The notes under the pieces: generated by a model
Seen by the model: only the letters and a program-made list of their open reading frames with translations
What the model was told of the DNA's origin: nothing
Databases searched by the model: none
Part shown: one piece after another, positions 40,513-60,065 of the stretch
Position numbering within the stretch: position 1 is the stretch's first letter
Layout: the number at the start of each line of letters is the position of its first letter
Source of the DNA: Candidatus Omnitrophota bacterium
GTDB lineage: Bacteria > Omnitrophota > Gorgyraeia > JAGLLT01
Length of the DNA: 64,000 bases
Assembly (NCBI GenBank): GCA_030632085.1
Contig: DAOVJY010000005.1
Location: forward strand, 37,476 to 101,475
Direction of reading: 5' to 3'
Made by a program: the position numbers and the translations under genes

Positions 40513-40527
40513 GAGGAGGGGCCAACC

Positions 40528-42582: not shown

Positions 42583-42583
42583 C

Positions 42584-45118
42584 GTGCCGGATCAAAAACG
42601 ATTTCTTAACCAGGATTTAGTGTTAAGGGTTACTGAAAACATTAATCTTTCTGTATTTGATATTAATAAGTATGAGGGTTTCATTGATGCTCTATGCGGT
42701 GATCGCGACTATCAGAAAGAAGCTATCCGAGCAACCCTTCGCTATCTACTCGGTGATCAATACCGCAATCTTTCCGCCCTTGCGGAAGAAAATCTAAAGT
42801 CTAATATAATCTTGCAAGATTTATATGGCTCATTTAATGAAATGAAAAAACACCTCCAGTTTTCCAATAAGCTTTCCTGTTCTCTGGACATGGCCACCGG
42901 CACCGGAAAAAGCTATGTAATCTACGCTATTGCGCGCATTATGCTGGCTGAAGGTGTTGTGGATCACGTTCTTGTGGTGTGTCCTTCCACCACCATAGAA
43001 ACAGGTCTTATGGAAAAATTTAGACTGCTTTCTGGTGATGCGACATTACGAGATCTTCTTCCAGACAACTCTATCATTAAAAATCCCCACATTATCAATG
43101 CCACCGAAAGCATAGCGACCGGTGCAATCTGCGTGGAAAACTGCCATGCTCTTTATGAACATGTAAAATCATCCATCCGCGAAAGCCTTGCCGGAAAAGG
43201 AGAGCGTACACTTATCGTTAATGATGAAACACACCATGTATACAATCAAACCGGGAAAGATTTCAAAAAATGGAAAGAATTTATCCTGGAGAAAGAGTTT
43301 AATTTCAAATACATCGTGGGACTTTCTGGAACTTGTTATATCAATGATGAATATTTTACTGATGTCATCAGTCGTTATTCTCTTAAGGAGGCTATCGAAC
43401 AAGGCTTTATAAAAACAATTGATTATGTTGCTCAAGATACATCTACTACCCAGAATGAAAAATTTCAAAAAATATATGACAACCACATTGAAAACAAAAA
43501 CACCAAATACCGCTTAATAAAGCCTCTTACCATTTTAATCACAAAAGACATCCGCGCCTGCAACAAACTTGCCGAAGATTTAATAAAGTTCCTTTCAAAA
43601 AAAGAAGGCATTTCCGTAGACGATGCTTCTCAGAAAGTATTAGAAGTAACTTCTTCGCCAAAACACAAAGAAAATGTTTGTAAACTTACAGAAGTAGACA
43701 GAAAAAATTGTCCTATAGAGTGGATTGCCTCAGTAAGTATGTTAACCGAAGGTTGGGATGTAAAAAATGTTTTTCAAATCGTTCCTCATGAAGAACGCGC
43801 TTTTAATAGTAAACTTCTTATTGCTCAAGTACTAGGACGGGGCTTAAGGATTCCGGAAGTGTATCTTGGCCAAAGACCGGTGGTTACCGTATTTAATCAT
43901 GATCGCTGGTCTAGCAGGATAAAGCACCTTGTTGATGAAGTGCTCGAAATAGAAAATAGAATCTACTCCTATCCCGTAAAAAAAAGACCTGACTACAACT
44001 TTTATATCCACCAGATTGATTATGCCCGTTTAAAAGAAACCGAAGAATACAAACAAGAAAAGGAATACGAATTTAAAAAAGGGTTTATCACCTTCATCAG
44101 GCAAGCCCCAGCGCTTGAACGAGAAACAGAATATATTCGCGTAACCACACAAGAAATCAGAAAAAAGAAGACGCTTGTCACATACAAAATGTTCTCCATA
44201 GAAGAAATTGCCGAACAGATATATAATCGTTTTAGATCAATCGATATGGAAACGGCCGTGTCAGATATGCCCACTAACTATACAAACAAATACAGCATCG
44301 ACTGGTTGAAAGTCCTCATTAAGAAATCTTTGGAACGTATCGGCGAGAAAGGTAGCCAGGTCAGCGATGAAAACAGGCAAAGGATATACCAGGCATTTGG
44401 CGTTCTTCATCGATCGGCCGCCAAAGCCGTCCGTTATAAAATGTCCCCAAAGGCCTTGGTTAAAATTAAAACGCAGGGGCGAAAAAAGTGCAGTGCTGGT
44501 TTTGCGTCCTTAAGGCGCGGCGACGCTACTATCTTCTGGGACGATAATTCAAAAAACCTGTGCGCAGAAGAAGACATAAATTTTATAAAAGAACTCAAAA
44601 CTCAAAAAGACGAACTTCCTGGCAGCGCAATGCAATATGTATCAAATGCCTACCATTTCAAAACCCCTTTAGGCATTGCAATCGCCAGCCATAAACCAGA
44701 ACGCCTTTTTATCCGCGGACTTGTCAAGGAGGAAAACGCCAAAATAATTGACAGCTGGATCAAATCAACCGATCAAGAATTCTATCCTATTGATTATTCA
44801 TGGAGAAAAGGAGAGCATCCTAAACGTGCACGTTTCAATCCGGATTTTTTTATTAAAGTTGGCAAGTCCATCCTTGTGGCAGAAATAAAAGGCGATGAAG
44901 AAATCAAAGATCCTTCTGATGAAAACAAAGCAAAATATAAAGCAGCTAAAAGGCACTTTGCTATCTTGAACAAGCAACAATCAGAGTTCAACTATTTTTT
45001 TAATTTCTTAACTCCCGACGATTACGACTACTATTTCAATCACCTGCGTAAAAAAAACTTTACATTTAACTCAAAACTCGATGCAGAACTTGATAAAAAT
45101 GGTAATGGCAAAAAATAA
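42584..45118 (+). CDS. Type III restriction enzyme Res subunit (SF2 helicase-nuclease)
   Basis: Walker A MATGTGKS, DEAH-like NDETHH, helicase C-terminal motifs; directly follows mod with 1-nt gap. Confidence 0.8.
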   Translation: MPDQKRFLNQDLVLRVTENINLSVFDINKYEGFIDALCGDRDYQKEAIRATLRYLLGDQYRNLSALAEENLKSNIILQDLYGSFNEMKKHLQFSNKLSCSLDMATGTGKSYVIYAIARIMLAEGVVDHVLVVCPSTTIETGLMEKFRLLSGDATLRDLLPDNSIIKNPHIINATESIATGAICVENCHALYEHVKSSIRESLAGKGERTLIVNDETHHVYNQTGKDFKKWKEFILEKEFNFKYIVGLSGTCYINDEYFTDVISRYSLKEAIEQGFIKTIDYVAQDTSTTQNEKFQKIYDNHIENKNTKYRLIKPLTILITKDIRACNKLAEDLIKFLSKKEGISVDDASQKVLEVTSSPKHKENVCKLTEVDRKNCPIEWIASVSMLTEGWDVKNVFQIVPHEERAFNSKLLIAQVLGRGLRIPEVYLGQRPVVTVFNHDRWSSRIKHLVDEVLEIENRIYSYPVKKRPDYNFYIHQIDYARLKETEEYKQEKEYEFKKGFITFIRQAPALERETEYIRVTTQEIRKKKTLVTYKMFSIEEIAEQIYNRFRSIDMETAVSDMPTNYTNKYSIDWLKVLIKKSLERIGEKGSQVSDENRQRIYQAFGVLHRSAAKAVRYKMSPKALVKIKTQGRKKCSAGFASLRRGDATIFWDDNSKNLCAEEDINFIKELKTQKDELPGSAMQYVSNAYHFKTPLGIAIASHKPERLFIRGLVKEENAKIIDSWIKSTDQEFYPIDYSWRKGEHPKRARFNPDFFIKVGKSILVAEIKGDEEIKDPSDENKAKYKAAKRHFAILNKQQSEFNYFFNFLTPDDYDYYFNHLRKKNFTFNSKLDAELDKNGNGKK

Positions 45119-45252
45119 CCTGAAGGGAAAAAGGGGGAAATGGGAACAGGCCTAATTAATATTGCTAAAATAATTGACAGGAATTTTAGAAAACAGTAGC
45201 CTTGGTAAAAAAAGTAATTATTGTGTCCCCGGATTCTGCAACGAACCTTTAA

Positions 45253-46518
45253 ATGGTGCGGTTTAATATGACAAAAAAGTTGGTGCAAAGACAATTTACT
45301 GTTGTTGACCTTTTTGCGGGAGCAGGAGGATTGCTTGAGGGATTCAGGAGGAAAGGGTTCAATATAATTTCTTCTGTCGAAATGAATTCCCATGCCTGCG
45401 ATACGCTCAAGACCAGACATACTTATTGGGATTATAAGGTAAAGAAAAAGCAAAGCGCATATTGGGATTATGTGCAGAAAAAAATCACCAGAGAAGTATT
45501 CCTGAATGGTTTGCCGGAAAACGCAGTTATAAATGTAGAGATTTCTCCCAAAACTATAAATGAGATTTCTCGACGGATTAGAGAGCAAATGAAGGAGATG
45601 AATGTATCTTCTATTGATGTTTTTATCGGAGGTCCTCCCTGTCAGGCATATTCCCTTGTAGGGAGAGCGCGAGACCCCAAAAGCATGAAGGATGACCCAA
45701 GAAAACAGCTATATAAGCACTATGTTCAATTACTGAAAAAGTTCATGCCTGAAGTCTTTGTGTTCGAGAACGTGCCGGGAATACTTTCAGCTGATGGTGG
45801 CGCATTATTTGAAGAGGTAAAGAAATATTTTGGAAAAGCAGGATACGTTGTTGAGCACAAAAAGCTGATTGCTTCTGACTTTATGGTTCTTGAGAACAGA
45901 AAAAGGGTTATATTAATTGGCTGGAAAAAGGATCGTGATCTGAAATATCCAGAGTTTAAACCCAAAAAACATGATTATCTTACAGCAGAATTATTTAAGG
46001 ATTTACCTCCACTAAACCCCGGAGAGGGTAGTGATGTTTCAGAGTACGTTAATAACGTATCAGATTATCTGAAGAAATCAAAAATTAGACATATAGAGCC
46101 CGTGCTTACGCACCACGTGACGAGGCCAATTAATGATAATGACAGAGAGATTTATAAAGAAGCTCTTGTTTTGTGGGAAACAGAAGGGAAAAGGCTTAAT
46201 TACGCTGATCTGCCAGAGAAACTAAAAACACATAAAAACCAGGCTTCGTTTCTTGACAGATTCAAAGTAGTAGCCGCTAATGAAGCAGCATCACACACAG
46301 TTGTTGCACACATCGCAAAAGACGGACACTATTATATACATCCAGACATCAAACAGCTAAGGTCAATAAGCGTCCGAGAAGCAGCACGAATACAGTCTTT
46401 TCCAGATAACTACTTTTTTGAGGGTCCGAGAACTGCAAAACTTGCCCAGATAGGAAATGCAGTGCCACCGCTTATGGCAGAAGCTATTGCTGGTAAGATA
46501 AAGGAGATGTTGAAATGA
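45253..46518 (+). CDS. dcm: DNA (cytosine-5)-methyltransferase
   Basis: Motif I FAGAGG, motif IV GGPPCQAYS, motif VI ENV, motif X QIGNAVPP. Confidence 0.9.
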   Translation: MVRFNMTKKLVQRQFTVVDLFAGAGGLLEGFRRKGFNIISSVEMNSHACDTLKTRHTYWDYKVKKKQSAYWDYVQKKITREVFLNGLPENAVINVEISPKTINEISRRIREQMKEMNVSSIDVFIGGPPCQAYSLVGRARDPKSMKDDPRKQLYKHYVQLLKKFMPEVFVFENVPGILSADGGALFEEVKKYFGKAGYVVEHKKLIASDFMVLENRKRVILIGWKKDRDLKYPEFKPKKHDYLTAELFKDLPPLNPGEGSDVSEYVNNVSDYLKKSKIRHIEPVLTHHVTRPINDNDREIYKEALVLWETEGKRLNYADLPEKLKTHKNQASFLDRFKVVAANEAASHTVVAHIAKDGHYYIHPDIKQLRSISVREAARIQSFPDNYFFEGPRTAKLAQIGNAVPPLMAEAIAGKIKEMLK

Positions 46519-48629
46519 AGGGAAATAAATTTCGGACACGTGCCAGACTTATTCAACAATTAGGTCTTCAGTTAATCAAGAATGAGGGTATTGCGCTTTT
46601 GGAATTAGTTAAAAATTCTTATGATGCAGATGCTTCATTTTGTACAGTAGAAATGAATAAGGTTAATATTCCTCAAAAGGGTTCTATTGTTATTACAGAT
46701 GATGGAGAGGGGATGGATGACGATATTTTACGCTCTGCCTGGCTTGAGATTGGGACAAGTCACAAAGAAGAATTAGCCTCTAATCCGGAAACCAAACGTA
46801 CAGACAAATTCAAGAGATTACGTTTAGGAGAAAAGGGAATTGGGAGACTTGGAGTTCATAGATTAGGGAAGTTTATAAAAATTATTACTAAAAGGGGCGA
46901 ATATGAATATGTTCTCGAAATTGATTGGGACAAATTTGAGCAAAAAAAATATATAGAAGATGTTGAGATTGTTATAAAAAGGCGTACTCCTGAAATCTTT
47001 GAGAAAAAAGAATCAGGGACAAAGATCATTATTACTAAATTACGAATTGCTTGGACACGAAAAAGAGTGCGTGAGTGTTGTAGGGCAATCACTTCTTTAA
47101 ATTCCCCTTTTCAGGACAAAACATCATTCAAGGCAACTCTTAATATTGATAATAAAGATTGGATAAAGGGATTGCTTGATTTTAATAATATTAAAAAATA
47201 TAAACTTTTTGAGTTTTCAATATGCATGGAAAAAAATGAGATAACAGAATTCAATTATAAATTTATTCCGTGGAGTACAATGCCTAAGTTAAAAGTGAGG
47301 CATATTACCAAGGATAACAAAGAAATAAAGTCTGTGCTGAGAATGGTATATAAAGATAAGGAAACTAGAGAATATCAAGATATAGATTTGTCAAAGCATA
47401 AAATTGGTCCAGTTCAATTTAAAGGTGTGATCTTTGATAGAGATGCGCGTGTTTTAGAATTGGGAGTTCAAGATAAAAGCGGTTTAAAGAAATATTTAGA
47501 TGCAAATGGGGGTATTAGGGTTTTTAGAGACAATATGCGCGTACTGGATTATGGTGAGCCAGGGAATGATTGGCTTGACTTGGGCGGAAGACGTGTTAAT
47601 GTTCCAACAAAAAGAATAAGTAATAACATTATAATTGGGGGAGTTTTTCTCAATCGTGCTAAAAGTAGTGACCTTAAAGAAAAAGCTAACAGAGAAGGGT
47701 TCCTTGAAGATGATGCTTATGATGAACTTGTTAAAGCAGTCCTCTATGCAATAGATAAGCTTGAAACATTCAGAAAGACAGATAAAGATTTATTAAGAAA
47801 ATATTATGGCCCTCAAAAAAATATTGAGCCAGTAATCACATCAATTGCAGAGCTAAAAGATATTGTTGAAAAAAATGTTAAAGAGAAAAATGTCCAGAAT
47901 ACGATCAATGTATACCTTGACCGTATAGAGCAGGATTATGAACGAATTACTGAAAGCTTAATTAAAAGTGCCGGAGCTGGATTAAATCTTATCGTTGTGA
48001 TACATCAGATAGAGAAAATAATTAAAGATATTAAAGCTGCACTTAAAAGTAAGGCGGTTAATAAAAGTATTTTGGGAAGAGTTGAAGATCTTGCTTCTCT
48101 TGTCGAAGGATATAGTATTCTCATAAAAAATTCTGAAAAAAAAGAGCGCAACTTAAAAGGTATAATAAATCAGTCATTATTTAATACAAAATTTCGCTTT
48201 GAAGCGCATGGCATAAATGTTAGGAAAGAATATGAGTCAAAAAGAAAGGGATTTGATGCTATTTGTTCGGAAGGACACGTTTTGAATGCCCTGATGAATC
48301 TTTTTGATAATTCTATATGGTGGCTGGGATATTCAAAAACTAAAAATCCAGAAATTTATATCGATGTTTCTGATGCAGTGCCTGGGGGCTATGTAAGCAT
48401 TATTATTGCAGATAATGGCCCGGGTTTCTCAATGCCGGTAGAAGAGCTTACGAAACCATTTGTGAGTAATAAGCCGGGAGGTATGGGAATAGGACTTCAC
48501 CTTACAAATGAAATCATGAAGTCTCTAAAAGGAAGATTGGTTTTTGATGTGGAGGAGTATTTTGATATACCGTCTAAATATAAAAATGGTGCAGTAATCG
48601 CTCTGGCATTTAAGAAAGAGGAGAAATGA
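46515..48629 (+). CDS. Dual Bergerat-fold ATPase: N-terminal MutL/MORC-type GHKL domain and C-terminal histidine-kinase-type HATPase_c domain
   Basis: N-terminal ELVKNSYDADA, DDGEGM, GEKGIGRLG; C-terminal NALMNLFDNS, IADNGPGF, GGMGIGLHL. ATGA start-stop overlap with dcm. Confidence 0.6.
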   Translation: MKGNKFRTRARLIQQLGLQLIKNEGIALLELVKNSYDADASFCTVEMNKVNIPQKGSIVITDDGEGMDDDILRSAWLEIGTSHKEELASNPETKRTDKFKRLRLGEKGIGRLGVHRLGKFIKIITKRGEYEYVLEIDWDKFEQKKYIEDVEIVIKRRTPEIFEKKESGTKIIITKLRIAWTRKRVRECCRAITSLNSPFQDKTSFKATLNIDNKDWIKGLLDFNNIKKYKLFEFSICMEKNEITEFNYKFIPWSTMPKLKVRHITKDNKEIKSVLRMVYKDKETREYQDIDLSKHKIGPVQFKGVIFDRDARVLELGVQDKSGLKKYLDANGGIRVFRDNMRVLDYGEPGNDWLDLGGRRVNVPTKRISNNIIIGGVFLNRAKSSDLKEKANREGFLEDDAYDELVKAVLYAIDKLETFRKTDKDLLRKYYGPQKNIEPVITSIAELKDIVEKNVKEKNVQNTINVYLDRIEQDYERITESLIKSAGAGLNLIVVIHQIEKIIKDIKAALKSKAVNKSILGRVEDLASLVEGYSILIKNSEKKERNLKGIINQSLFNTKFRFEAHGINVRKEYESKRKGFDAICSEGHVLNALMNLFDNSIWWLGYSKTKNPEIYIDVSDAVPGGYVSIIIADNGPGFSMPVEELTKPFVSNKPGGMGIGLHLTNEIMKSLKGRLVFDVEEYFDIPSKYKNGAVIALAFKKEEK

Positions 48630-49918
48630 TGCAGTTATCTAAAAATGGGAAAGTTGTGATTGTCGATAATGTTTTTACAGAAGCTAAACCTTTACTTGAT
48701 GTTTTAAATATGAACCAAATCCCCTATTTATATTTTGATGGTAAGGTTGATTCTTTACCTGAAACTCCTTGCAAAGGGATTAGATTTGTTTTTCTTGATA
48801 TAGCTTTGGAAGGAATGGATGGCGCAGATACAAAAACAAAAGCTTCAGCAATCGTAGGGATATTAGAAAAAATTATTTCGAAGGATAATGGTCCTTATGC
48901 GATTATTTTCTGGACAAAACATCCCGAAGTTATTGAAAGAACTCTTAAAAACTGTCAAATAAGGGGAATAAAGCCTGTAATTTCACTTGATCTAGATAAA
49001 TCAGAATGTAAAGAAGGTGAGACGTACTCTCTTAAGGCGATTTTAGAAAAATTAAAAACAAAGGCAGAAAAATTGGGTCCATATAGTTTATATATAATGT
49101 GGGAAAATATAGCTGCTGATTCAGGGACTGAATTTATTAACAGTTTTGCTAACATCTTTGAATTTGATGATAACTGGAGTGAAAACACAAGGCATCTTTT
49201 TTATCGTCTATATAAGGCTTATACTGAAAAAAATGAGGTTTCAGATGATAAAGACAAGATATTGTGCGTTCTGCAACTCATTAATCGAAGCTTTAAGGAT
49301 TTGCTAGATAATAATACTGTTAACTGTAGAGAAAAATTAAATTTATTTGAATTCCCATCGACTCCTACTGACGAAGAAGAAAAGAGGACTTTTTCCCAGA
49401 AAATCAATGAAATAATTTCCGATGAAATAATCGCTAAAATAAATAATAGTCTTTTTATTATTGATAATCCTGATTTCTCGCAATTATCCACAGTTGTTTT
49501 TAAATATGCTGACGAAGAATTGAAAAATATTTTTTTGGATAAATGTTTTGAAAAGATTTCAGAAGTAGCTAAAGCATCTGCCCAACTTTGTCGTCTTGTG
49601 ATAACACCTCAATGTGATATATGTCAAGATAAAGCCATATTGCATAGAGTCCTGTATGGAATTATTTTCAACGAAGATGATGCCACTAAATGTAGAAAAG
49701 GGCCGTTATTTCCTTTTGGTCCCTTTTATTTCCATGATAGTTCCAAGTCGATAGTTTTTCACTTGCAATCAATAACTACTTGTAAGAAAGATGAATTGTG
49801 TTCTAAAGAGGTGTTATTTGGACTACGAAAAGATTTATTTTTTGATATACAGGCCAATTCTGCAAATCATGTTAACCGACATGGTAATTTTGCAATAAAA
49901 AAGCAATTTAAAATATAA
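48626..49918 (+). CDS. Uncharacterised protein with receiver (CheY)-like N-terminal domain and unknown Cys-rich C-terminal domain
   Basis: VVIVDN...RFVFLDIALEG...IIFWTKHPE resembles REC beta1/beta3/beta4 elements (inference); ATGA overlap with upstream ATPase gene. Confidence 0.35.
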   Translation: MMQLSKNGKVVIVDNVFTEAKPLLDVLNMNQIPYLYFDGKVDSLPETPCKGIRFVFLDIALEGMDGADTKTKASAIVGILEKIISKDNGPYAIIFWTKHPEVIERTLKNCQIRGIKPVISLDLDKSECKEGETYSLKAILEKLKTKAEKLGPYSLYIMWENIAADSGTEFINSFANIFEFDDNWSENTRHLFYRLYKAYTEKNEVSDDKDKILCVLQLINRSFKDLLDNNTVNCREKLNLFEFPSTPTDEEEKRTFSQKINEIISDEIIAKINNSLFIIDNPDFSQLSTVVFKYADEELKNIFLDKCFEKISEVAKASAQLCRLVITPQCDICQDKAILHRVLYGIIFNEDDATKCRKGPLFPFGPFYFHDSSKSIVFHLQSITTCKKDELCSKEVLFGLRKDLFFDIQANSANHVNRHGNFAIKKQFKI

Positions 49919-49919
49919 C

Positions 49920-50093
49920 GTGGTTATTGTGCATGTATTCAACTTTGAAAATAGTGTCAGAAATAAATTATTTTTATGGTTTAAGAAAAATGCACGTTCA
50001 TTTCCATGGCGAACTATTAAAGACCCCTATCGTTTGATGGTTGCCGAGTTCATAAAAAAAGGGGTCAGAGTCATTTTTCATTCTGGTAGATAA
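49920..50093 (+). pseudogene. N-terminal fragment of a MutY/Nth-family (HhH-GPD) DNA glycosylase
   Basis: Translation ...LFLWFKKNARSFPWRTIKDPYRLMVAEFI then degenerates and stops; matches N-terminal signature of MutY/Mig-type glycosylases. Not in ORF track. Confidence 0.35.
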
Positions 50094-50495
50094 ATGTTGT
50101 ATCGCCAGATTTTCGCATGTTCCCAGATTTATTGGGATGTGTCCCTATTAAAATGGAGATAGGGGGCGATTCTATTTTAAAATAGTATGTGTTTTGATAA
50201 AAATTAATTTAAAAGAAGTGTAGAATCAGAGGGGACACAATACTAATTTTAGTAATAAAACAGAAGGCAAATAATAAATAGGTATCGTGTCACCAGATTT
50301 TTAGAAAATACATAATTGTTAGGAAGAATTTCCGCAAAACAACTTTGTCGATAAAATATTTTTCCAAAAAGCCAAGTATTTATTCTTTATATTAAAACGA
50401 CTTATCAAGCAAAAGCTAGCTTCAAATTCACATAATGTCTGATTATAGGATCCTGAGGTTCTTATTTATATTTTGTTTCCCTTTATCTAACTCCG

Positions 50496-52355
50496 TTGTA
50501 TAATAAAAAGAAAAATGGAGGAAAAATGTATATAAAACGAATCGTTATAAAGAATTACCGAAATTTAAAAGATATAGACCTTTCCTTTGGCGCAGGGTTA
50601 ACTTGTATTGTAGGTGAAAACAATTCTGGAAAAAGTAATTTTTTACATGCAATACGGTTGGCCTTAGACATGAATCTGCCGTATTATGTTAGACAGTTAA
50701 CAGAAGATGATTTCGCCAAAGAAGTAGACTTCAGCGTGCCACAACAGATTGTGGTAGGAGTACAATTTACGGATTTTTTTTCAGGTGCAGATGACGATAA
50801 GGTAAAGGAGCACGCTCTAGCGCAAGAGTGGGGTTTGGACGGGGAAACAGCACAAGTATGTTATCGGTTTAGACCTAAAGGTTCAGTGCGTAGGAATATA
50901 GCTTCTGGTGAGCGTGAACCAAAAAATTTAACCATAGAGGATTATGATTCAGAACTAGTAGCTGGGCCGATAGTTTGTGAAGACGGAGGCACAAAAGATT
51001 TGTCAGAGGTTTGTTGGGACGATGATTTTTCAACAGCTGTAAAATTTAATAGGCTATCAACGTATCGAGTAGCATTTTTACAACCTATTCGAGATGTTGA
51101 AGATGATCTGCGCCGACAAGCACGCTCCCCATTGTATAAGCTGATAAAAGTATCGGATATGTCTGATGAAAAGAAAAAAGAACTAATAAAAAAGATAGAT
51201 GATGTAAATAAAGAGATATCATCTGAAGCGGAAATCCAACAAATTGCTCAAGACATAGATGATTCCTTCAGTGCAGCGGTAGGCTCTATATTTAAAATGA
51301 ATACAAAGATAGGCATGATGTCGCCAACCTTTAGAGACATCACCCGCTCTTTAAAAATTTTACTGTCCGGACAGGGGCTGGAAGAGGCGAATATTTCTAG
51401 AAATGGGTTAGGGTTAAATAATATTTTATACATGAGTATGTTGTTGGAATATTACAAGAAACAAGGGGAGCAAGAAGATACCGCTGGCGAATTATTGTTG
51501 ATTGAAGAACCAGAGGCGCATCTACATCCCCAACTGCAAAGAGTCTTGCTGGGAAGATTAGAAAACAAAGAATGTCAAATAATCACGACCAGTCATAGTA
51601 CGCATATTACTTCACGTGTGGATTTAAATGAAGTGATAGTTTTTACGCGAAATACGGAGTATGAGATATCAGCTAAAAGATTGAGTGATAACAATTGGTC
51701 GTCTGATAACGATAAGGATGATTTGGAGAGATATATAGATGCTACAAAATCAGTTTTGTTATTTGCTAAAAAGGTTATTCTGGTAGAGGGAATGGCAGAA
51801 GTTTTCCTGATTCCTTTTTTAGTGAAAAAGATCAAAGAAATAGATCTAGAAGAGCATGGCATATCAATAGTTCCCATTCACGGCGTTCATTTTTCTTCAT
51901 ACTTAAAACTTTTTGGAAATGAAGCTATAAAAAAGAAATGTGCAGTTATAACCGACGGGGATCTAAGGCCTAGCGATTCATTTAATTCGGAAGAGGGGGA
52001 TTTCCCAAGAGTAGATTCTTTGAGAGATTTTGAAAATGACTTTGTAAGGATATTTCATTGTGGAACAACATTTGAAATAGAAACCGCATCTCCCAGCAAT
52101 TTAAAGATGTTCGCAAGTTCAGCTAATGAGCTAGGAGCGCCGCGAGTGGCGAAAGATCTAATGGAAAGCTATAAAAAGAAAAGTGAATTATCTGCGAAAG
52201 AAAAACTAGAAATGAGTAAAAAAGTTTTGAACACCGCAAAAAGGTTTGGTAAGGCACGATATGCACAGATATCATCACGGTATTCACAGTATGCCGAAGA
52301 ATTACCGACATATTTAGATAATGCAATTGATTGGTTGATAGATGAAGCTGACTAG
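50496..52355 (+). CDS. gajA: OLD-family ATP-dependent nuclease (GajA-like: ABC-type ATPase + Toprim)
   Basis: Walker A GENNSGKSN, Walker B LLLIEEPEAHLHP, Toprim residues VILVEGMAE and ITDGD; probable true start ATG 50526 with GGAGG RBS. Confidence 0.8.
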   Translation: MYNKKKNGGKMYIKRIVIKNYRNLKDIDLSFGAGLTCIVGENNSGKSNFLHAIRLALDMNLPYYVRQLTEDDFAKEVDFSVPQQIVVGVQFTDFFSGADDDKVKEHALAQEWGLDGETAQVCYRFRPKGSVRRNIASGEREPKNLTIEDYDSELVAGPIVCEDGGTKDLSEVCWDDDFSTAVKFNRLSTYRVAFLQPIRDVEDDLRRQARSPLYKLIKVSDMSDEKKKELIKKIDDVNKEISSEAEIQQIAQDIDDSFSAAVGSIFKMNTKIGMMSPTFRDITRSLKILLSGQGLEEANISRNGLGLNNILYMSMLLEYYKKQGEQEDTAGELLLIEEPEAHLHPQLQRVLLGRLENKECQIITTSHSTHITSRVDLNEVIVFTRNTEYEISAKRLSDNNWSSDNDKDDLERYIDATKSVLLFAKKVILVEGMAEVFLIPFLVKKIKEIDLEEHGISIVPIHGVHFSSYLKLFGNEAIKKKCAVITDGDLRPSDSFNSEEGDFPRVDSLRDFENDFVRIFHCGTTFEIETASPSNLKMFASSANELGAPRVAKDLMESYKKKSELSAKEKLEMSKKVLNTAKRFGKARYAQISSRYSQYAEELPTYLDNAIDWLIDEAD

Positions 52356-54114
52356 AGAACAGGTAAACGCTGTAAAATGTAGTAGCAATGTTGCTTTGGA
52401 ATCTTGTCCAGGAAGCGGAAAGACAAGAACCATTGTGGCGAAGCTTTTAGAATGCCTGGATGACGTCAGACAAACTACAAGAATGATTAGTTGTATAACA
52501 TATTTGAACTCAGCTGTAAATGAAATTAATCACAGATTAAGTAGTTGTATAACTCATGAAGAGCTAGAAGATTATTATGAGATAGGAACGATACATTCTT
52601 TTTGCCTGAGGAATATCTTTCGGCTAAATTATTGGAGGATAGATAAGTTTTCAGGAGGGTTTGCGATTATAACGCCAGACGATGATGAGTATAAAGAATT
52701 TGTTAGCAATATTATTGAGAATAATTCTCTCGACCCAAAATCATTCGATGACTTCAGCTTTTTGGTGAGAGAAGGCAAGATTTCGGGTAGGATGTCAGAT
52801 AAAGCCGCAAAAGAGTATTGGGAATATCTAGATGATAATAATTTAGTGGACTTTAACGATATAATATATTATTCAGCATGTCTAATACGGGAGAATGAAT
52901 ATATTATCGCTGGTCTCTCAGCAAAATATGCATGGATTTTAGTAGATGAATTTCAAGATACATCTATCCATCAAAAAGAGATCCTCAAAGCTATTTCAGA
53001 TTATAAAAGGACAAAGTTTTTTATTGTAGGGGATCCCTGTCAATCGATTATGGGTTTTGCTGGAGGAAGTTCGCTCTTAATGAAGCAGTTTTCAAAGGAG
53101 ATAGTTGCAAAGAATGATTTTTCATTAACGGGTAATTTCCGGAGTTCCAGTAGAATAATTAATTGTGCTGAAGAATTGCTTCCTCGTGATCCAAAAATGG
53201 ACGCAGTTGGAGAAAATAAATATTATAATCATAGCCCATTATGGATAAGAGCATGTGATTCCTTTTCTGGAATAGATGAATATTTTCTTCCAGCAATTAA
53301 GGAACATAATATTTCTTTAGGAGAATGCGCAATTTTAGCTCCAAATTTTTATATTTTCTTAAAGTTGGCTCCTAAAATGAGAGAAGCTGGCATATCTATA
53401 CTTGGTCCAGGATCACGCCCATACCGTAGGTCAAATCACATAATAGCTCCTTTAATTGAAGAGGTTTGCTTATTTATAGAAACACAGGACATAAAACAGA
53501 TAAAGATTATCCGATATAAAATTTTGGATGTAATTACTATATGCGAAGATAAAGTGGACAAAGATTTCTTTACGTTAAAAGGTGATATTGCTATCTTAAA
53601 AATATTGAACGCAGCAAAGAACTTAAAGAACAAAAATGTAAATGCTAAGCAATTTATTGTATCTTTTTCAGAAGAAATTGCTTCGTTGTTGCATGAGAGA
53701 GGATTCATAAAAAAAGAGGCCATAAGTCATATAGCGACCTCTGGGAAAGGATTAGTTTCTGATATAGAGGAACATTGTTCTGGCGATCCGTATAGTGGAG
53801 ACAATTTAACTATAGAAGATTTAAGCTTATTTAGTATCAATTCTGAGAGCATTAAATTATTAACCTTGCATAGGGCCAAGGGGAGGGAGTTTGATGCTGT
53901 AGCTGTAATATGCGTTCATGATGGATTGATTCCTTATGGCGCCCCTTATGCTGGTAGCGATGAGGAAAATGAATCAAGGCGCTTATTTTATGTTGGCATG
54001 ACAAGGGCTCGTAAATTGCTAATGTTTTTTACAGAGGTGAGGAACCTTAGGAGTCCTTCTCGTTTTCTGACAGAATTATTCCCAGCTGGTCCACACATAA
54101 TAGCTGACGTCTAA
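52342..54114 (+). CDS. gajB: UvrD/PcrA-like SF1 helicase (GajB-like)
   Basis: Walker A GSGKT, DExQD-type LVDEFQDTS, motif III GDPCQSI, motif VI YVGMTRARK; 14-nt overlap with the OLD nuclease gene. Confidence 0.8.
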   Translation: MKLTREQVNAVKCSSNVALESCPGSGKTRTIVAKLLECLDDVRQTTRMISCITYLNSAVNEINHRLSSCITHEELEDYYEIGTIHSFCLRNIFRLNYWRIDKFSGGFAIITPDDDEYKEFVSNIIENNSLDPKSFDDFSFLVREGKISGRMSDKAAKEYWEYLDDNNLVDFNDIIYYSACLIRENEYIIAGLSAKYAWILVDEFQDTSIHQKEILKAISDYKRTKFFIVGDPCQSIMGFAGGSSLLMKQFSKEIVAKNDFSLTGNFRSSSRIINCAEELLPRDPKMDAVGENKYYNHSPLWIRACDSFSGIDEYFLPAIKEHNISLGECAILAPNFYIFLKLAPKMREAGISILGPGSRPYRRSNHIIAPLIEEVCLFIETQDIKQIKIIRYKILDVITICEDKVDKDFFTLKGDIAILKILNAAKNLKNKNVNAKQFIVSFSEEIASLLHERGFIKKEAISHIATSGKGLVSDIEEHCSGDPYSGDNLTIEDLSLFSINSESIKLLTLHRAKGREFDAVAVICVHDGLIPYGAPYAGSDEENESRRLFYVGMTRARKLLMFFTEVRNLRSPSRFLTELFPAGPHIIADV

Positions 54115-54262
54115 TTATACCCACACAATAAAAACTTGTATATAGAGAGATAATGAGGAAAAAATCTATTTTCCTTGATTTTCTATTCGTATTTATTATA
54201 TATAACCGTCTCTTTTGTTCTCAAAGTGATGATACTAAGAATTCCAGAAGCACAATATCTAA

Positions 54263-54466
54263 CTAACCAACAACATTTTTTTTAACATAAATTTCAAAGA
54301 TACCGTTTCTTAGCCTTGTCCCATGTATTTTTGACTTCGGGATCCAGATTTTCATGCCGTTATCTACCAATATAGCTTTATCAGTCTCATGTAAGATGCG
54401 GACTTGAATCCAGATGTATTTTTCGTCAGGGTATAATAGTCTATAAATGTTGAATGGCCGGGGCAT
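54263..54466 (-). CDS. Small hypothetical protein
   Basis: 67-aa ORF directly downstream of the HTH ORF on the same strand; no recognisable motif. Confidence 0.2.
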   Translation of the reverse strand: MPRPFNIYRLLYPDEKYIWIQVRILHETDKAILVDNGMKIWIPKSKIHGTRLRNGIFEIYVKKNVVG

Positions 54467-54470
54467 AGGG

Positions 54471-54668
54471 TTATCTCCTTTTAAATTGACAGGCTTTTTT
54501 GGCAGTATTCTTGCCTATTTTTAAAGCTTTGGCTATTTGCTTGTAAGTCATTCCCAGTAAATGCAATTCACTTGCTTTTTGGGCTAATTTTTGGTATAAA
54601 TAGATTCGTTGGGCGGGTTGAATCTTGATATGAGCCGATATTTCAGCAATAGTTCGAATTGGTTGCAA
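54471..54668 (-). CDS. Small HTH protein, possibly a transposase N-terminal fragment
   Basis: HTH-like LGMTYKQIAKALKIGKNTAKK; only 65 aa, at the distal edge of the island. Confidence 0.25.
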   Translation of the reverse strand: MQPIRTIAEISAHIKIQPAQRIYLYQKLAQKASELHLLGMTYKQIAKALKIGKNTAKKACQFKRR

Positions 54669-54696
54669 CCGCGTCCGCCATTATAGCAAAGAGCCC

Positions 54697-54724
54697 GTAG
54701 TGTAGAGCGTAGGGCAAAGATAGA
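54697..54724. repeat. Copy of dispersed TAGAGCG-core repeat
   Basis: GTAGTGTAGAGCGTAGGGCAAAGATAG followed by CCAAAAAAAGGATTTTAAGGGAAAAGAT; about 70-75% identical to 56738-56830. Confidence 0.45.
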
Positions 54725-54855
54725 TTGCGCAGGGACGAGAACCCAAAAAAAGGATTTTAAGGGAAAAGATTGCTCCCTCTCCTCAGGGGTTTAGGCTTCT
54801 ACTTTAAGGTAATTAAATAGCGCGTTCCTCGATTTTTTGCAAAAATAGGAGGTGC

Positions 54856-56340: not shown

Positions 56341-56532
56341 ATGGATATAAATCAGTTCAAGCAACTTCCTATCATGGGAATATTGCGCGGAATTGATGAA
56401 GAATCTATTACTCCCCCTACCGAAAGCATTATTTCTTCAGGCCTCAAGACGGTTGAAATCACAATGAACACTACTGGCGCTGCATCTTTAATTAAAAAGA
56501 TGGACGAGTTCGAGATCCAATTTGCTTGTTAA
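56341..56532 (+). pseudogene. Truncated KDPG/KHG aldolase (Eda-like) N-terminal fragment
   Basis: LPIMGILRG...TVEITMNT matches Eda N-terminus; ORF ends after 63 aa where the tRNA leader repeat begins. Confidence 0.45.
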
Positions 56533-56607
56533 AATTGTACGTAAAATATCTCTCACCTACTTTTGATAGGTTCGAGATCCAATTTGTTTGTTAAAATTGT
56601 ACAAATT
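56511..56607 (+). repeat. Second copy of the tandem tRNA leader repeat
   Basis: GTTCGAGATCCAATTTGCTTGTTAAAATTGTAC occurs twice, matching 37171-37294. Confidence 0.5.
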
Positions 56608-56695
56608 GGAGAGATGGCAGAGCGGTTGAATGCGGCGCATTCGAAATGCGTTGTGCCGAAAGGTACCGGGGGTTCGAATCCTCCTCTCTCCGCCA
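56608..56695 (+). tRNA. tRNA-Ser (anticodon CGA)
   Basis: Acceptor GGAGAGA/TCTCTCC, anticodon loop TTCGAAA, long variable arm, T-loop TTCGAAT, ends GCCA. Confidence 0.85.
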
Positions 56696-56737
56696 CCGTA
56701 CCACGTAGGGTACGGTGCGCGCATTGTAACAAAGAAC

Positions 56738-56763
56738 GTACAGTATAGAGCGTAAGATAAAAG
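56738..56763. repeat. Copy of dispersed TAGAGCG-core repeat downstream of tRNA-Ser(CGA)
   Basis: GTACAGTATAGAGCGTAAGATAAAAG ... CCAAAAAAAGGGCTTTAGGGGAAAAGAT, homologous to 54697-54790. Confidence 0.45.
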
Positions 56764-57286
56764 TAGAATGTTTTGGGATGAGAATCCAAAAAAAGGGCTT
56801 TAGGGGAAAAGATAATTTTCCCTTATTGGCGAAGTTTACTTTTTCAGCGGGAGGAAAGAAAGTATTAAAAGGAGGCAATTAAAATGAAAAGATATGGTTG
56901 GATGATTGGATGAACTGTAATTTTCAGTGCAGGCATGATGATGGCAATAGAATATGTTCCTGAGAATGTTTGGCAACAGGTTGTACAAACGTTGAATTTT
57001 ACAAATACATTGTTGCTTGTTTCAGTAGTGTTGCAAGCTGGGATTTTAGCGAACTTAAAAAACTAAAACTATATATCTGTAGGAGAAAAAAACTTTTTAG
57101 GGCTTGGAGAAAACATGAATGTTTATTTTGAAACTGATGAGGGAAAAATTTTAATAAGAGATTACATGCAGGCATTTCCTATAATCCAAGTAAAGGGCGT
57201 AACGTTTATTATATCGATAGTTGCATCAATTTTTGTTTCAATAGGTATTGTTTTATTTTTTCACGTTTTGTAGATAAATAGTTTTT

Positions 57287-57320
57287 GTGTCCACACAACA
57301 CCAAAACAACGGCAAACAAA
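57287..57320. repeat. Left copy of ~33-bp direct repeat flanking the HTH/ImmA module
   Basis: GTGTCCACACAACACCAAAACAACGGCAAACAA versus right copy GTGCCCACACAACCAAAACAACGGCAAACAA. Confidence 0.5.
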
Positions 57321-57444
57321 ACATCTGACCGGTCTATTTGCTTGACATTATTTGTTACATTGTGTATGGTTATTATATACGTTGTAACAATTATACAACA
57401 TATGGGTATTTTCTAAAAACAAAAAGGGTAGGGGGTGAGCTATT

Positions 57445-57819
57445 ATGGCGAAGGAATCTTTTGGAGATTTGCTAAGGAAACTAAGACTAAAAAAGGGATA
57501 TGGGTTAAGGTCGTTTGCAAAGAAAATCAACTGGCTTCCATCTAATCTCAGCCATTTGGAAACTGGAAGAATTAATCCTCCGAGAGACAAAAAAATGCTG
57601 TATCATATTGCAAAAGCACTTGATCTTAAAAAGGGTTCTAAAGAGCAGAATCGCTTCTTTGACCTTGCGGTGGATGATGTGCCAGATCGACTGCCTGCTG
57701 ACATAACAGAGTATGTGAATGAACACTCTTTAGCTCCTGTTATGCTAAGAACAGTCGCTAATAAGAAGCTTACAAAATTTCAGATTCAAAGATTGATTAA
57801 AGATATAAAAAATATGTAG
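57445..57819 (+). CDS. XRE-family HTH regulator (ImmR-like)
   Basis: HTH LRSFAKKINWLPSNLSHLETGR; preceded by TTGACA-17-TATGGT promoter overlapping a GTTACA...TGTAAC palindrome. Confidence 0.7.
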   Translation: MAKESFGDLLRKLRLKKGYGLRSFAKKINWLPSNLSHLETGRINPPRDKKMLYHIAKALDLKKGSKEQNRFFDLAVDDVPDRLPADITEYVNEHSLAPVMLRTVANKKLTKFQIQRLIKDIKNM

Positions 57820-57820
57820 A

Positions 57821-58423
57821 ATGAAAAAATCTAAAATTCAAATCTATGATGTCCTTACCTTAGAAGAAATCGCAAAGGCTTTTCTAGATAAATATGATAA
57901 CTCAGACAGTCTTGAAGTTGATATAGAATATATCATTGAAAACAAGTTAGAATGGAAAATCATAGGTGTTTCTTTCTTAAGGGAAAAGTATTGTATTGAA
58001 GCATATTTTAATAAAAATAAAGAACTCTATGTTGATTCATTCCTTATGGATTCTAGGGAAAGGAGATATCGTTTTACTTTAGCTGAAGAAGTGGCCCATC
58101 ATATAATTCATCGTGATATATATGCACAGTGTGCTAATTTGGAGGAGCATCTCGAAATATATGGTAAAATAACAGCAAATGAATATCACAGCATGGAAAG
58201 AAATGCTAAGTATTTAGCTTCAGCAATAATTATGCCTAGTATTTCATTTGAAAAACAAGCAATAAAAATTTGTAAAAAAATTAATAAGAAAGAATATGAA
58301 ACTAATCAGGAAGTATTGTATAAAATAGCATTAACTTTATCAAATGATTTTAATGTAAGTGATGAGGCTGCAAGAATAAGATTTATAAAATTAGGATTGC
58401 AGCAAAAACTAATAACCCTATAA
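57821..58423 (+). CDS. ImmA/IrrE-family zinc metallopeptidase
   Basis: HExxH motif (EEVAHHIIH) in a ~200-aa protein directly downstream of an XRE regulator. Confidence 0.65.
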   Translation: MKKSKIQIYDVLTLEEIAKAFLDKYDNSDSLEVDIEYIIENKLEWKIIGVSFLREKYCIEAYFNKNKELYVDSFLMDSRERRYRFTLAEEVAHHIIHRDIYAQCANLEEHLEIYGKITANEYHSMERNAKYLASAIIMPSISFEKQAIKICKKINKKEYETNQEVLYKIALTLSNDFNVSDEAARIRFIKLGLQQKLITL

Positions 58424-58445
58424 ATTATAATTTTGTGCCCAAATT

Positions 58446-58479
58446 GTGCCCACACAACCAAAACAACGGCAAACAAGCC
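58446..58479. repeat. Right copy of direct repeat flanking the HTH/ImmA module
   Basis: See 57287-57320. Confidence 0.5.
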
Positions 58480-58589
58480 TATTTTTGTAAATTGTAATCA
58501 CAAGCGCGGCTGCGTAATCTGTTCGAGGCGAAGCCTCGAACAAAATACATAAAAAAATAAAAAGCTTACAGCTATCAGCTTTCAGCAAA

Positions 58590-58629
58590 GATAGCGTTTA
58601 GCATAGAGCGCGTAGCGGATAGGAAAAGC
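58590..58629. repeat. Copy of dispersed repeat core with flanking CAGCTATCAGCTTTCAG
   Basis: GATAGCGTTTAGCATAGAGCGCGTAGCGGATAGGAAAAGCAAAAAAACAAG matches the reverse complement of 17900-17955 inside the giant gene. Confidence 0.5.
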
Positions 58630-58719
58630 AAAAAAACAAGAAATAAGAAACAAGTCACAAATCGGAAAACAAAAGAACATATCCGAAACGCGGCGGTTCA
58701 GATACAGGCCAAAGAAGAA

Positions 58720-59364
58720 ATGAAAAAAACGGTCGCTGTCCCTATTAAAACTAAAAAAATGAAAGTTTTATTTCTCACAATCCTAATTGGCCTGGTACCT
58801 TTGATTGTTTTGGCTGAGCAGCCCGATATTACAACTCAGGTTGGCCCTGAACGTTCAGAAGAAACTGAAAAGCCTGAGGGCTCAGACTTAAGCATGGAGC
58901 AAATAATGCAAGAATTAGAACGAGTAAAAGAACAATTAAAAAATGTTGGAAAGACACATGACCAATTAGAAATTGACCGCCGGAAATTAGGACGACTTAT
59001 CATAGATAACAATGAGTTTTTCACTCTCAGGGTAATGGAGAATATCGCCACAGCCTGTAAATTGTTTCGCGCGGATCAAGAACTGCAAACTTTTCCCAGA
59101 AGATTTAGAGATTTAGAAGATTATGTTTCCGAGGACATAATCAATGCTACCAATTCCTCCAAAGCTATCCACGGGTATTATTATCAATATAATTTTATAA
59201 ATAAAGATAGATTTAGGCTAAAGGCCATTCCCGCTACTAAAGGTAAAACGGGAGAGAGGACATTTGTTTTTGATGACGCGGGCGGCATTATCAACGAGGA
59301 GACAGGCAGACCCGTAAGTCTAAAGAAAGAGAAAGACAAACAAAAATCAGGAGGAACAAAATGA
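58720..59364 (+). CDS. Secreted hypothetical protein
   Basis: Signal peptide/TM (VLFLTILIGLVPLIVLA); no family recognised. Confidence 0.4.
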   Translation: MKKTVAVPIKTKKMKVLFLTILIGLVPLIVLAEQPDITTQVGPERSEETEKPEGSDLSMEQIMQELERVKEQLKNVGKTHDQLEIDRRKLGRLIIDNNEFFTLRVMENIATACKLFRADQELQTFPRRFRDLEDYVSEDIINATNSSKAIHGYYYQYNFINKDRFRLKAIPATKGKTGERTFVFDDAGGIINEETGRPVSLKKEKDKQKSGGTK

Positions 59365-60065
59365 AAAATATTGTAATTTTATTAATGCTTGTTTGTTTTT
59401 TTGCTGTAACTGTTTCTGCCGGTGAGTATTCAAAAAATTACACCTTTGTCCATAATTTAATTAGTTGCTTGGATAGGTTAGAATTAGCTGCCCAGCGTAG
59501 CATTGAGGATGTAGAATATGAATCGATATCACCAAATCTTTATAAGCAGATATGTTACTTAAGAGATGCAAAGATATTTATGAAGGCAGGGTTAAAGAAC
59601 AGAAAAAAGGCGATTAAGGCCACTGCTATGGGGATGTATGTGGATATTTCTGAAATAGAAGGCGCTTGTAAGAATTTAGTAAATGTTTTAAGTGAACCGA
59701 CGCCGGAGAATATGCCGGAAATATCCGGATATTCTTCACAGATAGGGGCGGCGTGGAATAAAATTTTCCAAACCAGTAGTCTCGCTCTTTGGGTTATTGC
59801 CAAGCCCGCGAAATCTAAAAATCCTAAAGGAAAAATTCGCTTTATTATCTCCAAAAAAGAACGACAAGAGCTGCTTAGATATCTTAATGAAAGATTTGGA
59901 AAAAAGTTTAAGGAATATGACAAATTATTGAGTCAAAAAAATAAAGGCGTAATTGATGAATTTAAACTTACAATTCCTGTTTGGTCGGCATTACATTTGC
60001 GCTCGCTCTTAACTCAAGAAACATATGAACAAGCCGCGGAAAAGAGCAGATACGAAACCCCTTGA
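59361..60065 (+). CDS. Secreted hypothetical protein
   Basis: Signal peptide (IVILLMLVCFFAVTVSA); 4-nt overlap with upstream gene. Confidence 0.4.
   Translation: MKNIVILLMLVCFFAVTVSAGEYSKNYTFVHNLISCLDRLELAAQRSIEDVEYESISPNLYKQICYLRDAKIFMKAGLKNRKKAIKATAMGMYVDISEIEGACKNLVNVLSEPTPENMPEISGYSSQIGAAWNKIFQTSSLALWVIAKPAKSKNPKGKIRFIISKKERQELLRYLNERFGKKFKEYDKLLSQKNKGVIDEFKLTIPVWSALHLRSLLTQETYEQAAEKSRYETP

Follow-up and report, generated by a model that had tools for sequence, protein, structure and literature searches.

An XRE-M78 regulatory operon between arm-like direct repeats in an Omnitrophota contig, a probable integrase-less remnant of a tRNA-Ser-specific element

A 64-kb stretch of DNA from a Candidatus Omnitrophota bacterium (the window) contains, at positions 57287-58479, a segment in which the gene of an XRE-family helix-turn-helix (HTH) protein is followed by that of an M78-family protein of the ImmA/IrrE/CapP fold, with a direct repeat on either side. 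An earlier note on this DNA had likened the pair to the ImmR/ImmA switch and had considered the segment to be either a remnant or a mobilisable regulatory cassette. Our analysis indicates that it is probably an integrase-less, attR-proximal remnant of a tRNA-Ser-specific element with a lambda-type tyrosine integrase, comparable with a cis-mobilisable element (CIME). The features of the locus, with their positions in the window, are the following.

56608-56695, plus strand: tRNA-Ser(cga), found by ARAGORN and Rfam
57285-57334, plus strand: repeat copy A, a P-arm-like segment
57342-57370, plus strand: predicted sigma-70-type promoter of the XRE-M78 operon, TTGACA-17-TATGGT
57382-57398, no strand assigned: candidate operator TTGTA-N7-TACAA, a palindrome directly downstream of the -10 box
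57445-57819, plus strand: XRE-family HTH protein of 124 amino acids (aa), Pfam HTH_31 (1.3e-7), also HTH_19 and HTH_3
57821-58423, plus strand: M78 (ImmA/IrrE/CapP-fold) protein of 200 aa, Pfam Peptidase_M78 (4.4e-8)
58434-58478, plus strand: repeat copy B, a P-arm-like segment

The two genes are on the same strand with a gap of 1 nucleotide (nt), and the operon is intact. That near-identical direct repeats of about 33 bp bracket the segment, as the earlier note had claimed, is borne out by alignment. Without gaps, 57288-57319 and 58445-58476 are 88% identical over 32 nt; with gaps, copy A covers 57285-57319 (35 nt) and copy B 58444-58476 (33 nt), with one mismatch and a 2-nt insertion or deletion between them. 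Within the window, a 28-nt repeat pattern with up to three mismatches matches at copies A and B only (about 0, or 0.00, expected from shuffles), and so does the exact 17-mer core of the repeat (0.03 expected). The idea that the repeats might be common dispersed motifs, which by the earlier note would have refuted its reading, finds no support in these counts from the window, as both of the copies flank the module. The repeat-to-repeat unit measures 1157 nt, and only the XRE and M78 genes lie inside it.

The two copies differ in layout. Copy A consists of one TGTGTCCA unit (57286-57293), an 8-nt spacer and CAAAACAACGGCAAACAA (57302-57319), followed by AAACATCTGACCGG, the continuation typical of the motif family described below. 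Copy B starts 10 nt past the M78 stop codon and consists of two TGTGCCCA units 11 nt apart (58434-58441 and 58445-58452), a 6-nt spacer and CAAAACAACGGCAAACAA (58459-58476). The TGTGCCCA unit at 58434-58441 is an extra one without counterpart in copy A, and the likeness of copy B to the family stops after CAAACAA. The copies are complementary truncations, copy A keeping the right continuation of the family and copy B its left part. They appear to be two copies of one arm of an attachment (att) site, composed of arm-type sites and adjacent C/A-rich repeats. A duplication of the target site does not account for them, and they are not a repeat of the dispersed kind either. The earlier view of the repeats as boundaries of the segment therefore holds in part: they are related to the boundaries of an element, but as probable att-arm copies and not as target duplications or integron-type cassette ends. 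On the minus strand (58424-58452), the reverse complement of the copy B TGTGCCCA unit and an upstream ATTATA make up a 10/12 match to a sigma-70-like promoter (TGGGCA-17-TATAAT), which reads antisense into the M78 gene and is probably due to chance.

The arrangement can be compared with that of a complete element, found in the full 8.35-kb contig of an M78 relative with 58% identity (L178), which comes from a different organism and sample than the window. The integrated element is 8.1 kb long. The last 20 nt of a tRNA-Ser(cga) gene (39-127), GAATCCTCCTCTCTCCGCCA, are exactly repeated at 108-127 and 8229-8248. From left to right, the contig contains the left repeat, a TGTGCCCA pair, a 310-aa gene, a tyrosine integrase (Phage_integrase, 2.2e-36), cargo, an excisionase-like HTH_17 gene (4.6e-12), the XRE and M78 genes, the arm and the right repeat. 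One TGTGCCCA pair lies 73 nt inward of attL and the other 129 nt inward of attR, and the attP deduced from this geometry has a P-to-P' spacing of 241 nt. In this contig, as in L011 and L012, the pair starts 8 nt after the M78 stop codon and the C/A-rich repeats come next; a start 8-10 nt past the stop is common to these loci, the window and the relative L101.

In the window, tRNA-Ser(cga) lies 590 nt upstream of copy A in the same orientation as the XRE-M78 module. It ends (56676-56695) in the same 20 nt that form the attL/attR core of L178, GAATCCTCCTCTCTCCGCCA, which occurs once in the window. Together, the XRE-M78 operon and copy B match the attR-proximal part of an L178-type element. Both the remnant interpretation and the comparison with an ImmR/ImmA-like switch are strengthened by L178, where the operon is part of a complete integrative element.

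The closest example of a small unit is L101, whose M78 protein has 67% identity to that of the window. Here an XRE-M78 unit of 1205 nt lies between 31-nt repeats that hold a tRNA-Ser-like core; its arm pair is degenerate (TGTGCCCCAAATTGTACCCA, by inspection) and starts 10 nt after the M78 stop, and a third tRNA-Ser-like core is present one unit further on. Integrated elements are known to lose genes for integration and transfer, which gives rise to CIMEs, and to accrete in tandem at att sites (PMC5704250). Taken together with L101, this published decay and accretion leads us to read the window segment as a remnant of accretion and deletion.

The window M78 protein, which is on record in a 349-kb NCBI contig, belongs to a tight family of 13 proteins with 49-68% identity to it, and relatives carry the source names Omnitrophota or Omnitrophica. 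Wherever a fetched locus includes the upstream region, an XRE gene (~124 aa) stands ahead of the M78 gene. The neighbours vary and comprise a Fic gene (L003), toxin-antitoxin units of the ribbon-helix-helix (RHH)-Fic type with a giant gene (L004-L009), AbiE (L010), two small genes (L181) and an integrase-bearing island (L011/L178). Because the XRE gene is constantly paired with the M78 gene while the neighbours differ, the pair travels as a unit. Many of the M78-bearing contigs are just 1.2-2.4 kb long. The module of L003 has no flanking repeats, and L181, the second-closest relative, is uninformative, as its contig begins inside the XRE gene and leaves the upstream flank uncovered. A different repeat was seen at L004:691-4530 and also in L005-L009, where four direct copies of GCCTCGAGACCGGTTTTGAGCACA (22-24 nt, unlike the repeat of the window) separate RHH-Fic, metallophosphatase, RHH-Fic and XRE-M78-103aa units in a cassette-like array, just upstream of a gene of 4309 aa. 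The window itself also contains a giant open reading frame (ORF), of 2481 aa, at 14160-21605 on the minus strand.

The motif of copies A and B was also searched for outside the module. A scan of 185,579 species genomes (one per species) with the 18-mer core gave 76 single matches, nearly all of them without similarity past the 18-mer, which fits chance; the source genome was not among the matches. The longer motif, TGTGCCCA, 8 nt and CAAAACAACGGCAAACAA, was present in L038 (Omnitrophota) and L074 (Planctomycetia). Further carriers, which came to light in a metagenome scan and on inspection of all loci, are L089, L090 (two copies), L094, L098 and L178/L011/L012. The composite motif recurs in L038/L098, L074, L089, L090 and L094. 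In the alignment, the family begins with a single TGTGCCCA unit or two of them at 11-nt spacing, continues with 6-8 nt of spacer, and then has a C/A-rich part of two to four ~10-nt units (AAACAnCGGn) that ends near ACAG(G)TAgAATCC.

In the other genomes, the composite motif sits at att sites. In L038 the 3' end of tRNA-Ser(gga) is repeated exactly over 23 nt, and the motif lies 114 nt before this repeat. In L090 both C/A-rich (P-type) copies have a tRNA-Ser-like core ~147 nt further on, and a C/A-rich-type and a promoter-type copy are situated 239 nt apart around one core, an arrangement that would be expected of a P-O-P' junction between tandem units. The minus strand of L038:350-1250 contains an integrase-less unit of ~790 nt with a pilin-like gene only, between exact 23-nt repeats. 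On the minus strand of L090:365-5107 there are two tandem integrase-less units bounded by repeats of the tRNA-Ser(gga) 3' end, with metabolic genes as cargo (radical-SAM-like and alanine-dehydrogenase-like). Each of these units has a TGTGCCCA pair and a near-identical promoter at its start, and a TGTGCCCA pair, C/A-rich repeats and a core at its end.

Other identities of the motif were considered and rejected. It is not the terminal repeat of an insertion sequence (IS), because the L094 copy adjoins an IS3-family element but lies outside the inverted repeats of the IS itself (TGACCTGACCCC). A sigma-54 promoter on the opposite strand is mimicked by GG-N10-GC, yet it would be antisense to every neighbouring gene (by reading). 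A dispersed repeat does not agree with two copies in the window and core matches in species genomes that are mostly chance-like.

The TGTGCCCA pair on its own is more widespread. TGTGCCCA-N3-TGTGCCCA was found at 74 IMG/VR loci (L104-L177), ranging from AT-rich to GC-rich, and in 23 of the 74 it lies within 500 nt of a tyrosine-integrase-like ORF, compared with 8.5 expected for random positions in the same loci. The nine integrase ORFs that were tested all belong to the Phage_integrase family, and three of them also match Arm-DNA-bind_4. At eight loci the motif overlaps the integrase-like ORF; in the six that are readable it lies in the last 13-32 codons, in two frames that read …NVPKMCPK… and …KCAQSVPT…. 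The use of two reading frames indicates that the conservation is in the DNA and not in the protein. Two sets of TGTGCCCA pairs, 211-266 nt apart, are present at eight loci, matching the 241 nt implied by L178. In the viral contigs the motif is also often found beside tRNA genes. From their positions, the TGTGCCCA pairs are likely to be arm-type sites of the integrase, and the C/A-rich repeats, which occur on one arm only, may by analogy with lambda attP be excisionase sites. TGTGCCCA-N3-TGTGCCCA looks like an arm-type site code common to many integrases. A literature search for TGTGCCCA in connection with integrases returned primer coincidences only, and no description of it was found in the searchable literature.

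The XRE protein has its HTH at the N terminus (Pfam matches at residues 6-61), followed by a C-terminal extension of ~60 aa, and it matches PADLOC capH (1.6e-5). It is presumed to be a repressor. The M78 protein matches PADLOC capP (5.3e-14), whereas no NCBIfam ImmA model matched above its cut-off, and a sequence search of the Protein Data Bank (PDB) with the profile of the close M78 family gave none at E <= 0.01. An AlphaFold2 model made from 25 relatives has a mean predicted local distance difference test (pLDDT) score of 91.5. When it was compared with the PDB using Foldseek, the best matches were CapP, PprI/IrrE and an XRE-fused homologue from M. tuberculosis, with a probability of 1.00 and a template modelling (TM) score of ~0.5. 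The protein has no GAF domain, and in the model its 200 residues make up the peptidase and linker helices only. Two relatives were found among viral contigs, both distant.

The HTH_31 and Peptidase_M78 matches confirm the gene pair that the earlier note had recognised, but the metal-site motif is EExxH (AEEVAHHIIH) and not the HExxH that it had named. In an alignment to CapP (7t5t), E89 is aligned with the first zinc-binding histidine of HELGH. E89, E90 and H93 are invariant in 25/25 of the M78 relatives found, and the third position of a zinc ligand is E126 in the window protein and an aspartate in close relatives. Glutamate is able to ligate zinc, and the variant motif keeps the catalytic glutamate and the second histidine. 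To judge from these residues, the members of the EExxH clade could be proteases with an altered metal site or non-catalytic partners.

Promoters comparable to TTGACA-17-TATGGT are visible in the relatives (by reading). The candidate operator TTGTA-N7-TACAA is situated 63-75 nt upstream of the XRE start in 5/6 module loci and has one mismatch in the sixth. A different operator-like palindrome, GTTACA...TGTAAC, had been proposed at the promoter. Both of its hexamers are present, but GTTACA (57354-57359) sits in the promoter spacer and TGTAAC (57383-57388) is overlapped by TTGTA-N7-TACAA, which is the palindrome that is conserved. The XRE-M78 pair of the window has the same sequence in three data sets and is probably still expressed. 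More speculatively, it perhaps confers immunity against incoming relatives.

The surroundings of the segment contain a second tRNA-Ser gene, which is followed by a defence island.

37295-37382: tRNA-Ser(tga), the second tRNA-Ser of the window
37368-39053, minus strand: large serine recombinase of the defence island
40528-45118: type III restriction-modification-like genes of the defence island
50496-54114: Gabija genes GajA/GajB of the defence island

Within 37295-54770, the island of ~17.3 kb is inserted immediately 3' of tRNA-Ser(tga). Its restriction-modification components are of types III and II. Besides RadC, it further encodes a C5 methyltransferase along with a GHKL ATPase and a protein of 430 aa. 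At the two ends of the island there is an inverted repeat of 11 bp, CCAATTCGAAC (37389-37399) and GTTCGAATTGG (54652-54662). The large serine recombinase, 18 kb upstream of the segment, is the sole recombinase in the window. An iterated profile search seeded with integrases revealed no tyrosine recombinase ORF of at least 120 aa there, in agreement with the earlier remark that no integrase is adjacent. Both tRNA-Ser genes are preceded by two copies of one ~62-nt unit (37196-37294 and 56505-56607). An ORF resembling 2-keto-3-deoxy-6-phosphogluconate (KDPG) aldolase (56341-56532) is cut off exactly at the start of this unit, which suggests that the tRNA block was duplicated or converted into position.

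The 92 nt at 56722-56813, after tRNA-Ser(cga), are 75% identical to the 92 nt at 54679-54770, after the defence island, and on this resemblance they are probably the native downstream flank of tRNA-Ser(cga). The alignment score for a third copy of the flank after copy B was no better than that of shuffles. Downstream of copy B, at 58720-60065, lie genes for two signal-peptide proteins of 214 and 234 aa without a Pfam, NCBIfam or PADLOC match; in relatives these genes occur without the XRE-M78 module. In another Omnitrophota genome (L102:1385-4585) an HTH_17-Fic unit ends in a tRNA-derived core repeat and the pair follows immediately, once more downstream of a tRNA-Ser gene; the pair may itself be island cargo. 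An RNA element was rejected as well: an Rfam search of 56500-58900 returned only the tRNA and two sub-threshold matches overlapping it at E <= 1 and gave nothing over copy A, copy B or the operon, and no conserved hairpin was seen.

The reading that we prefer, and consider somewhat better than an even chance, is that the segment is what remains of the attR-proximal end of a tRNA-Ser-specific element. In complete relatives, the tRNA-Ser 3' end (attL core) is followed by the P' arm, cargo and integrase, the HTH_17 gene, XRE, M78, the P arm and the attR core, the P arm being formed by two TGTGCCCA units and then the C/A-rich 10-nt repeats. The window would have kept the XRE-M78 operon with its own P arm (copy B) and a partial second P arm (copy A) just upstream of the promoter; integrase and excisionase gene are missing, and so are the cargo and the two cores. 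The integrase would bind the TGTGCCCA pairs through its arm-binding domain, and the excisionase would bind the C/A-rich repeats. The XRE protein would repress its own promoter through TTGTA-N7-TACAA, and in the intact element also excision functions. In response to a stress signal, the M78 protein would relieve this repression by cleaving or antagonising the repressor, as ImmA, IrrE and CapP do; the mechanism of ImmR/ImmA, DdrO/IrrE and CapH/CapP, and the zinc ligands and architecture of CapP, have been described (10.1101/2022.04.27.489752). The duplicated arm would most likely stem from tandem accretion of two related elements and subsequent deletions.

Several observations weigh against the remnant reading. 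No second copy of the tRNA 3' end was found in the window, even with five errors allowed, so that a canonical attR core is missing. As tRNA-Ser(cga) is directly followed by a seemingly native flank, the unit is not in the att site itself. The flanking repeats of the window are arm segments and not cores. Accretion with deletion would require at least two deletions, and no intermediate documents such a history. The functions assigned to the TGTGCCCA pairs and to the C/A-rich repeats are deduced from position, and with a non-canonical EExxH metal site the proteolytic activity of the M78 protein is not assured.

Some of the same observations would be explained if the 1157-nt unit were an active, non-autonomous mini-element. 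Copies A and B would recombine to release it as a circle, and it would re-integrate, using an integrase (and excisionase) that a full-length relative supplies in trans; the XRE-M78 pair would be its sole cargo, possibly an addiction or immunity module. We consider this unlikely. Joined B to A in a circle, the copies would again form a complete P arm, immediately upstream of the XRE promoter, and the observed topology is also the one to be expected if a small circle integrated through recombination in the shared 33 nt. The junction of such a circle would read M78 end, TGTGCCCAAAT, the shared 33 nt, AACATCTGACCGG and XRE promoter, and the empty site GATAAATAGTTT, one repeat and GCCTATTTTTG. The unit of L101 is of nearly the same size and is bounded by core-containing repeats, integrase-less units with exact tRNA-derived repeats exist in L038 and L090, and the short M78 contigs would fit assembly breaks at repeats. 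However, no circle junction, empty site or polymorphism was found for the 1157-nt unit, and the window and two other, independent sequencing runs all show one identical integrated arrangement. The search for an empty site through orthologues of the flanking genes gave no record for the 214-aa protein and found a 52-aa ORF only in the same three contigs; orthologues of the 234-aa gene (L102 and L103) had only that gene or the gene pair in common, so that no empty site could be defined, and the outer flanks of the unit had no homology to any fetched locus. Moreover, tyrosine integrases cross over at cores and not at arms, and neither a core copy nor a cognate integrase is present in the window. 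The module of L003, which lacks flanking repeats, also speaks against a mini-element, and at L181 the upstream flank is not covered. A mobilisable cassette, the other suggestion of the earlier note, is possible but unproven.

The remaining explanations deny the repeats a role in recombination or assign them to another system. They could be purely cis-regulatory, as transcription-factor sites for the XRE-M78 operon (copy A) and for the downstream genes of secreted proteins or secretion (copy B): each copy is upstream of genes on the same strand, a spacing of 11 nt between direct TGTGCCCA units is typical of winged-helix activators, and the P'-type pairs of L090 and L178 lie ~20 nt upstream of -35 boxes. 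This is improbable, since the motif keeps a fixed distance, on the inner side, to the exact tRNA-derived repeats at element boundaries, is enriched beside or over tyrosine integrase genes in unrelated viral contigs, and in L089 lies between convergent genes; the near-identity of the non-consensus spacer in copies A and B also indicates a duplication and not independent sites. At least as improbable is a regulator of the CapH/CapP type that would respond to DNA damage by turning on a neighbouring defence or toxin operon, with the repeats being incidental. The PADLOC capP and capH matches, CapP as the best structural match and the nearby defence island agree with it, and CapH/CapP-like pairs regulate many immune operons (10.1101/2022.04.27.489752). 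On the other hand, the genes downstream have no defence match and occur without the module in relatives, the defence island, 2.6 kb off and beyond a tRNA, is an element of its own with a serine recombinase, each relative has other genes beside the module, and the 200-aa M78 protein has no GAF domain. An integron-type gene cassette with the repeats as attC sites has next to no probability and is excluded. Cassette-like units with short direct repeats do occur here and in the arrays of L004, L090 and L101, and cargo of the toxin-antitoxin kind is typical of chromosomal integrons. But the window contains no IntI or tyrosine recombinase and two repeat copies only, and these are 33-45 nt long without RYYYAAC...GTTRRRY inverted boxes (by reading). 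When folded as single strands, they do not exceed shuffles in stability (z -0.02 to -0.69, both strands), and the boundaries in relatives are the tRNA 3' ends used by lambda-type integrases.

As the probable remnant of an integrative element, the segment is a fairly ordinary kind of object in a little-studied phylum, and its novelty is modest. With this reading, what had looked like a regulatory cassette standing by itself becomes recognisable as part of a tRNA-Ser-targeting mobile family in an uncultivated phylum. The DNA signature, TGTGCCCA-N3-TGTGCCCA with C/A-rich 10-nt repeats ~115-130 nt from a tRNA-derived core, can serve to delimit islands in metagenome-assembled genomes, and the EExxH clade of ImmA/IrrE-like proteins bears on whether the partners in such pairs remain proteases. 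XRE-M78 modules, pilin-like genes, Fic toxin-antitoxin pairs and metabolic genes were seen as cargoes of small units. A wider proposal, doubtful as it stands, is that tRNA-Ser genes in Omnitrophota and related bacteria of the Planctomycetes-Verrucomicrobia-Chlamydiae (PVC) group are gene-capture platforms, where small integrase-less units would build up in tandem and lambda-type integrases acting in trans would shuffle them. Its corollaries are just as doubtful: that each unit has its own att arm, that the 1157-nt unit of the window is active and recombines within the arm-proximal repeat, and that the arm code spans phyla. If true, such platforms would be a functional analogue of the integron built from arm-dependent tyrosine integrases, and if the small integrase-less units prove mobile, they would represent an integron-like route of gene capture.

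Like integron cassettes and clusters of attC sites lacking integron integrases (CALINs), the units are small, bear promoters, have short direct repeats and form same-strand arrays; unlike them, they have no IntI, attC structure or hairpin, and their boundaries are tRNA-derived cores with arm sites. CapH/CapP and DdrO/IrrE (PprI) give the best profile and fold matches to the XRE-M78 pair and share its two-protein architecture. CapH/CapP genes adjoin, as a rule in divergent orientation, the defence operon that they repress, such as one for a cyclic oligonucleotide-based antiphage signalling system (CBASS). CapP has a C-terminal GAF domain that senses single-stranded DNA (10.1101/2022.04.27.489752), whereas the window pair lacks a GAF domain, is not accompanied by a CBASS or another immune operon, has the EExxH motif and belongs to an integrative-element context.

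With ImmR/ImmA of ICEBs1 and phage phi105 (Bacillus subtilis), the pair shares the order of an XRE repressor gene and an M78-fold gene in one operon. It also shares the location in an integrative element beside the recombination module, as in L178 the HTH_17 gene is directly upstream and the att arm directly downstream. ImmA is small and without a GAF domain, another likeness to the window M78 protein. Here, in contrast, the integrase is not co-transcribed, being at the opposite end of L178 and absent from the window, the first zinc-binding histidine is replaced by glutamate, and the host belongs to the Omnitrophota and not to the Firmicutes.

The att sites resemble attP of phage lambda, which has arm-type integrase sites on both arms and Xis sites on the P arm. 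In the loci described here, 70-130 nt to either side of the core, there are direct repeats at helical spacing, a second class of tandem repeats is present on one arm, and the span is ~240 nt (L178, L090 and eight viral loci). Unlike in lambda, TGTGCCCA-N3-TGTGCCCA is common to integrases of very different G+C content and often lies over the stop region of the integrase gene, and its binding is putative. Compared with CIMEs, the unit of the window is very small (1.16 kb), its repeats are arm segments in place of attL/attR cores (L101 does have core-containing repeats), and no transfer or mobilisation genes were seen in any relative. As in the CIMEs and tandem accretion arrays of the ICESt1 type in streptococci (PMC5704250), however, units without an integrase are kept between direct repeats derived from att sites, they lie beside a tRNA gene (L101, L090, L038 and L102), and a full-length, integrase-bearing relative, L178, coexists with them.

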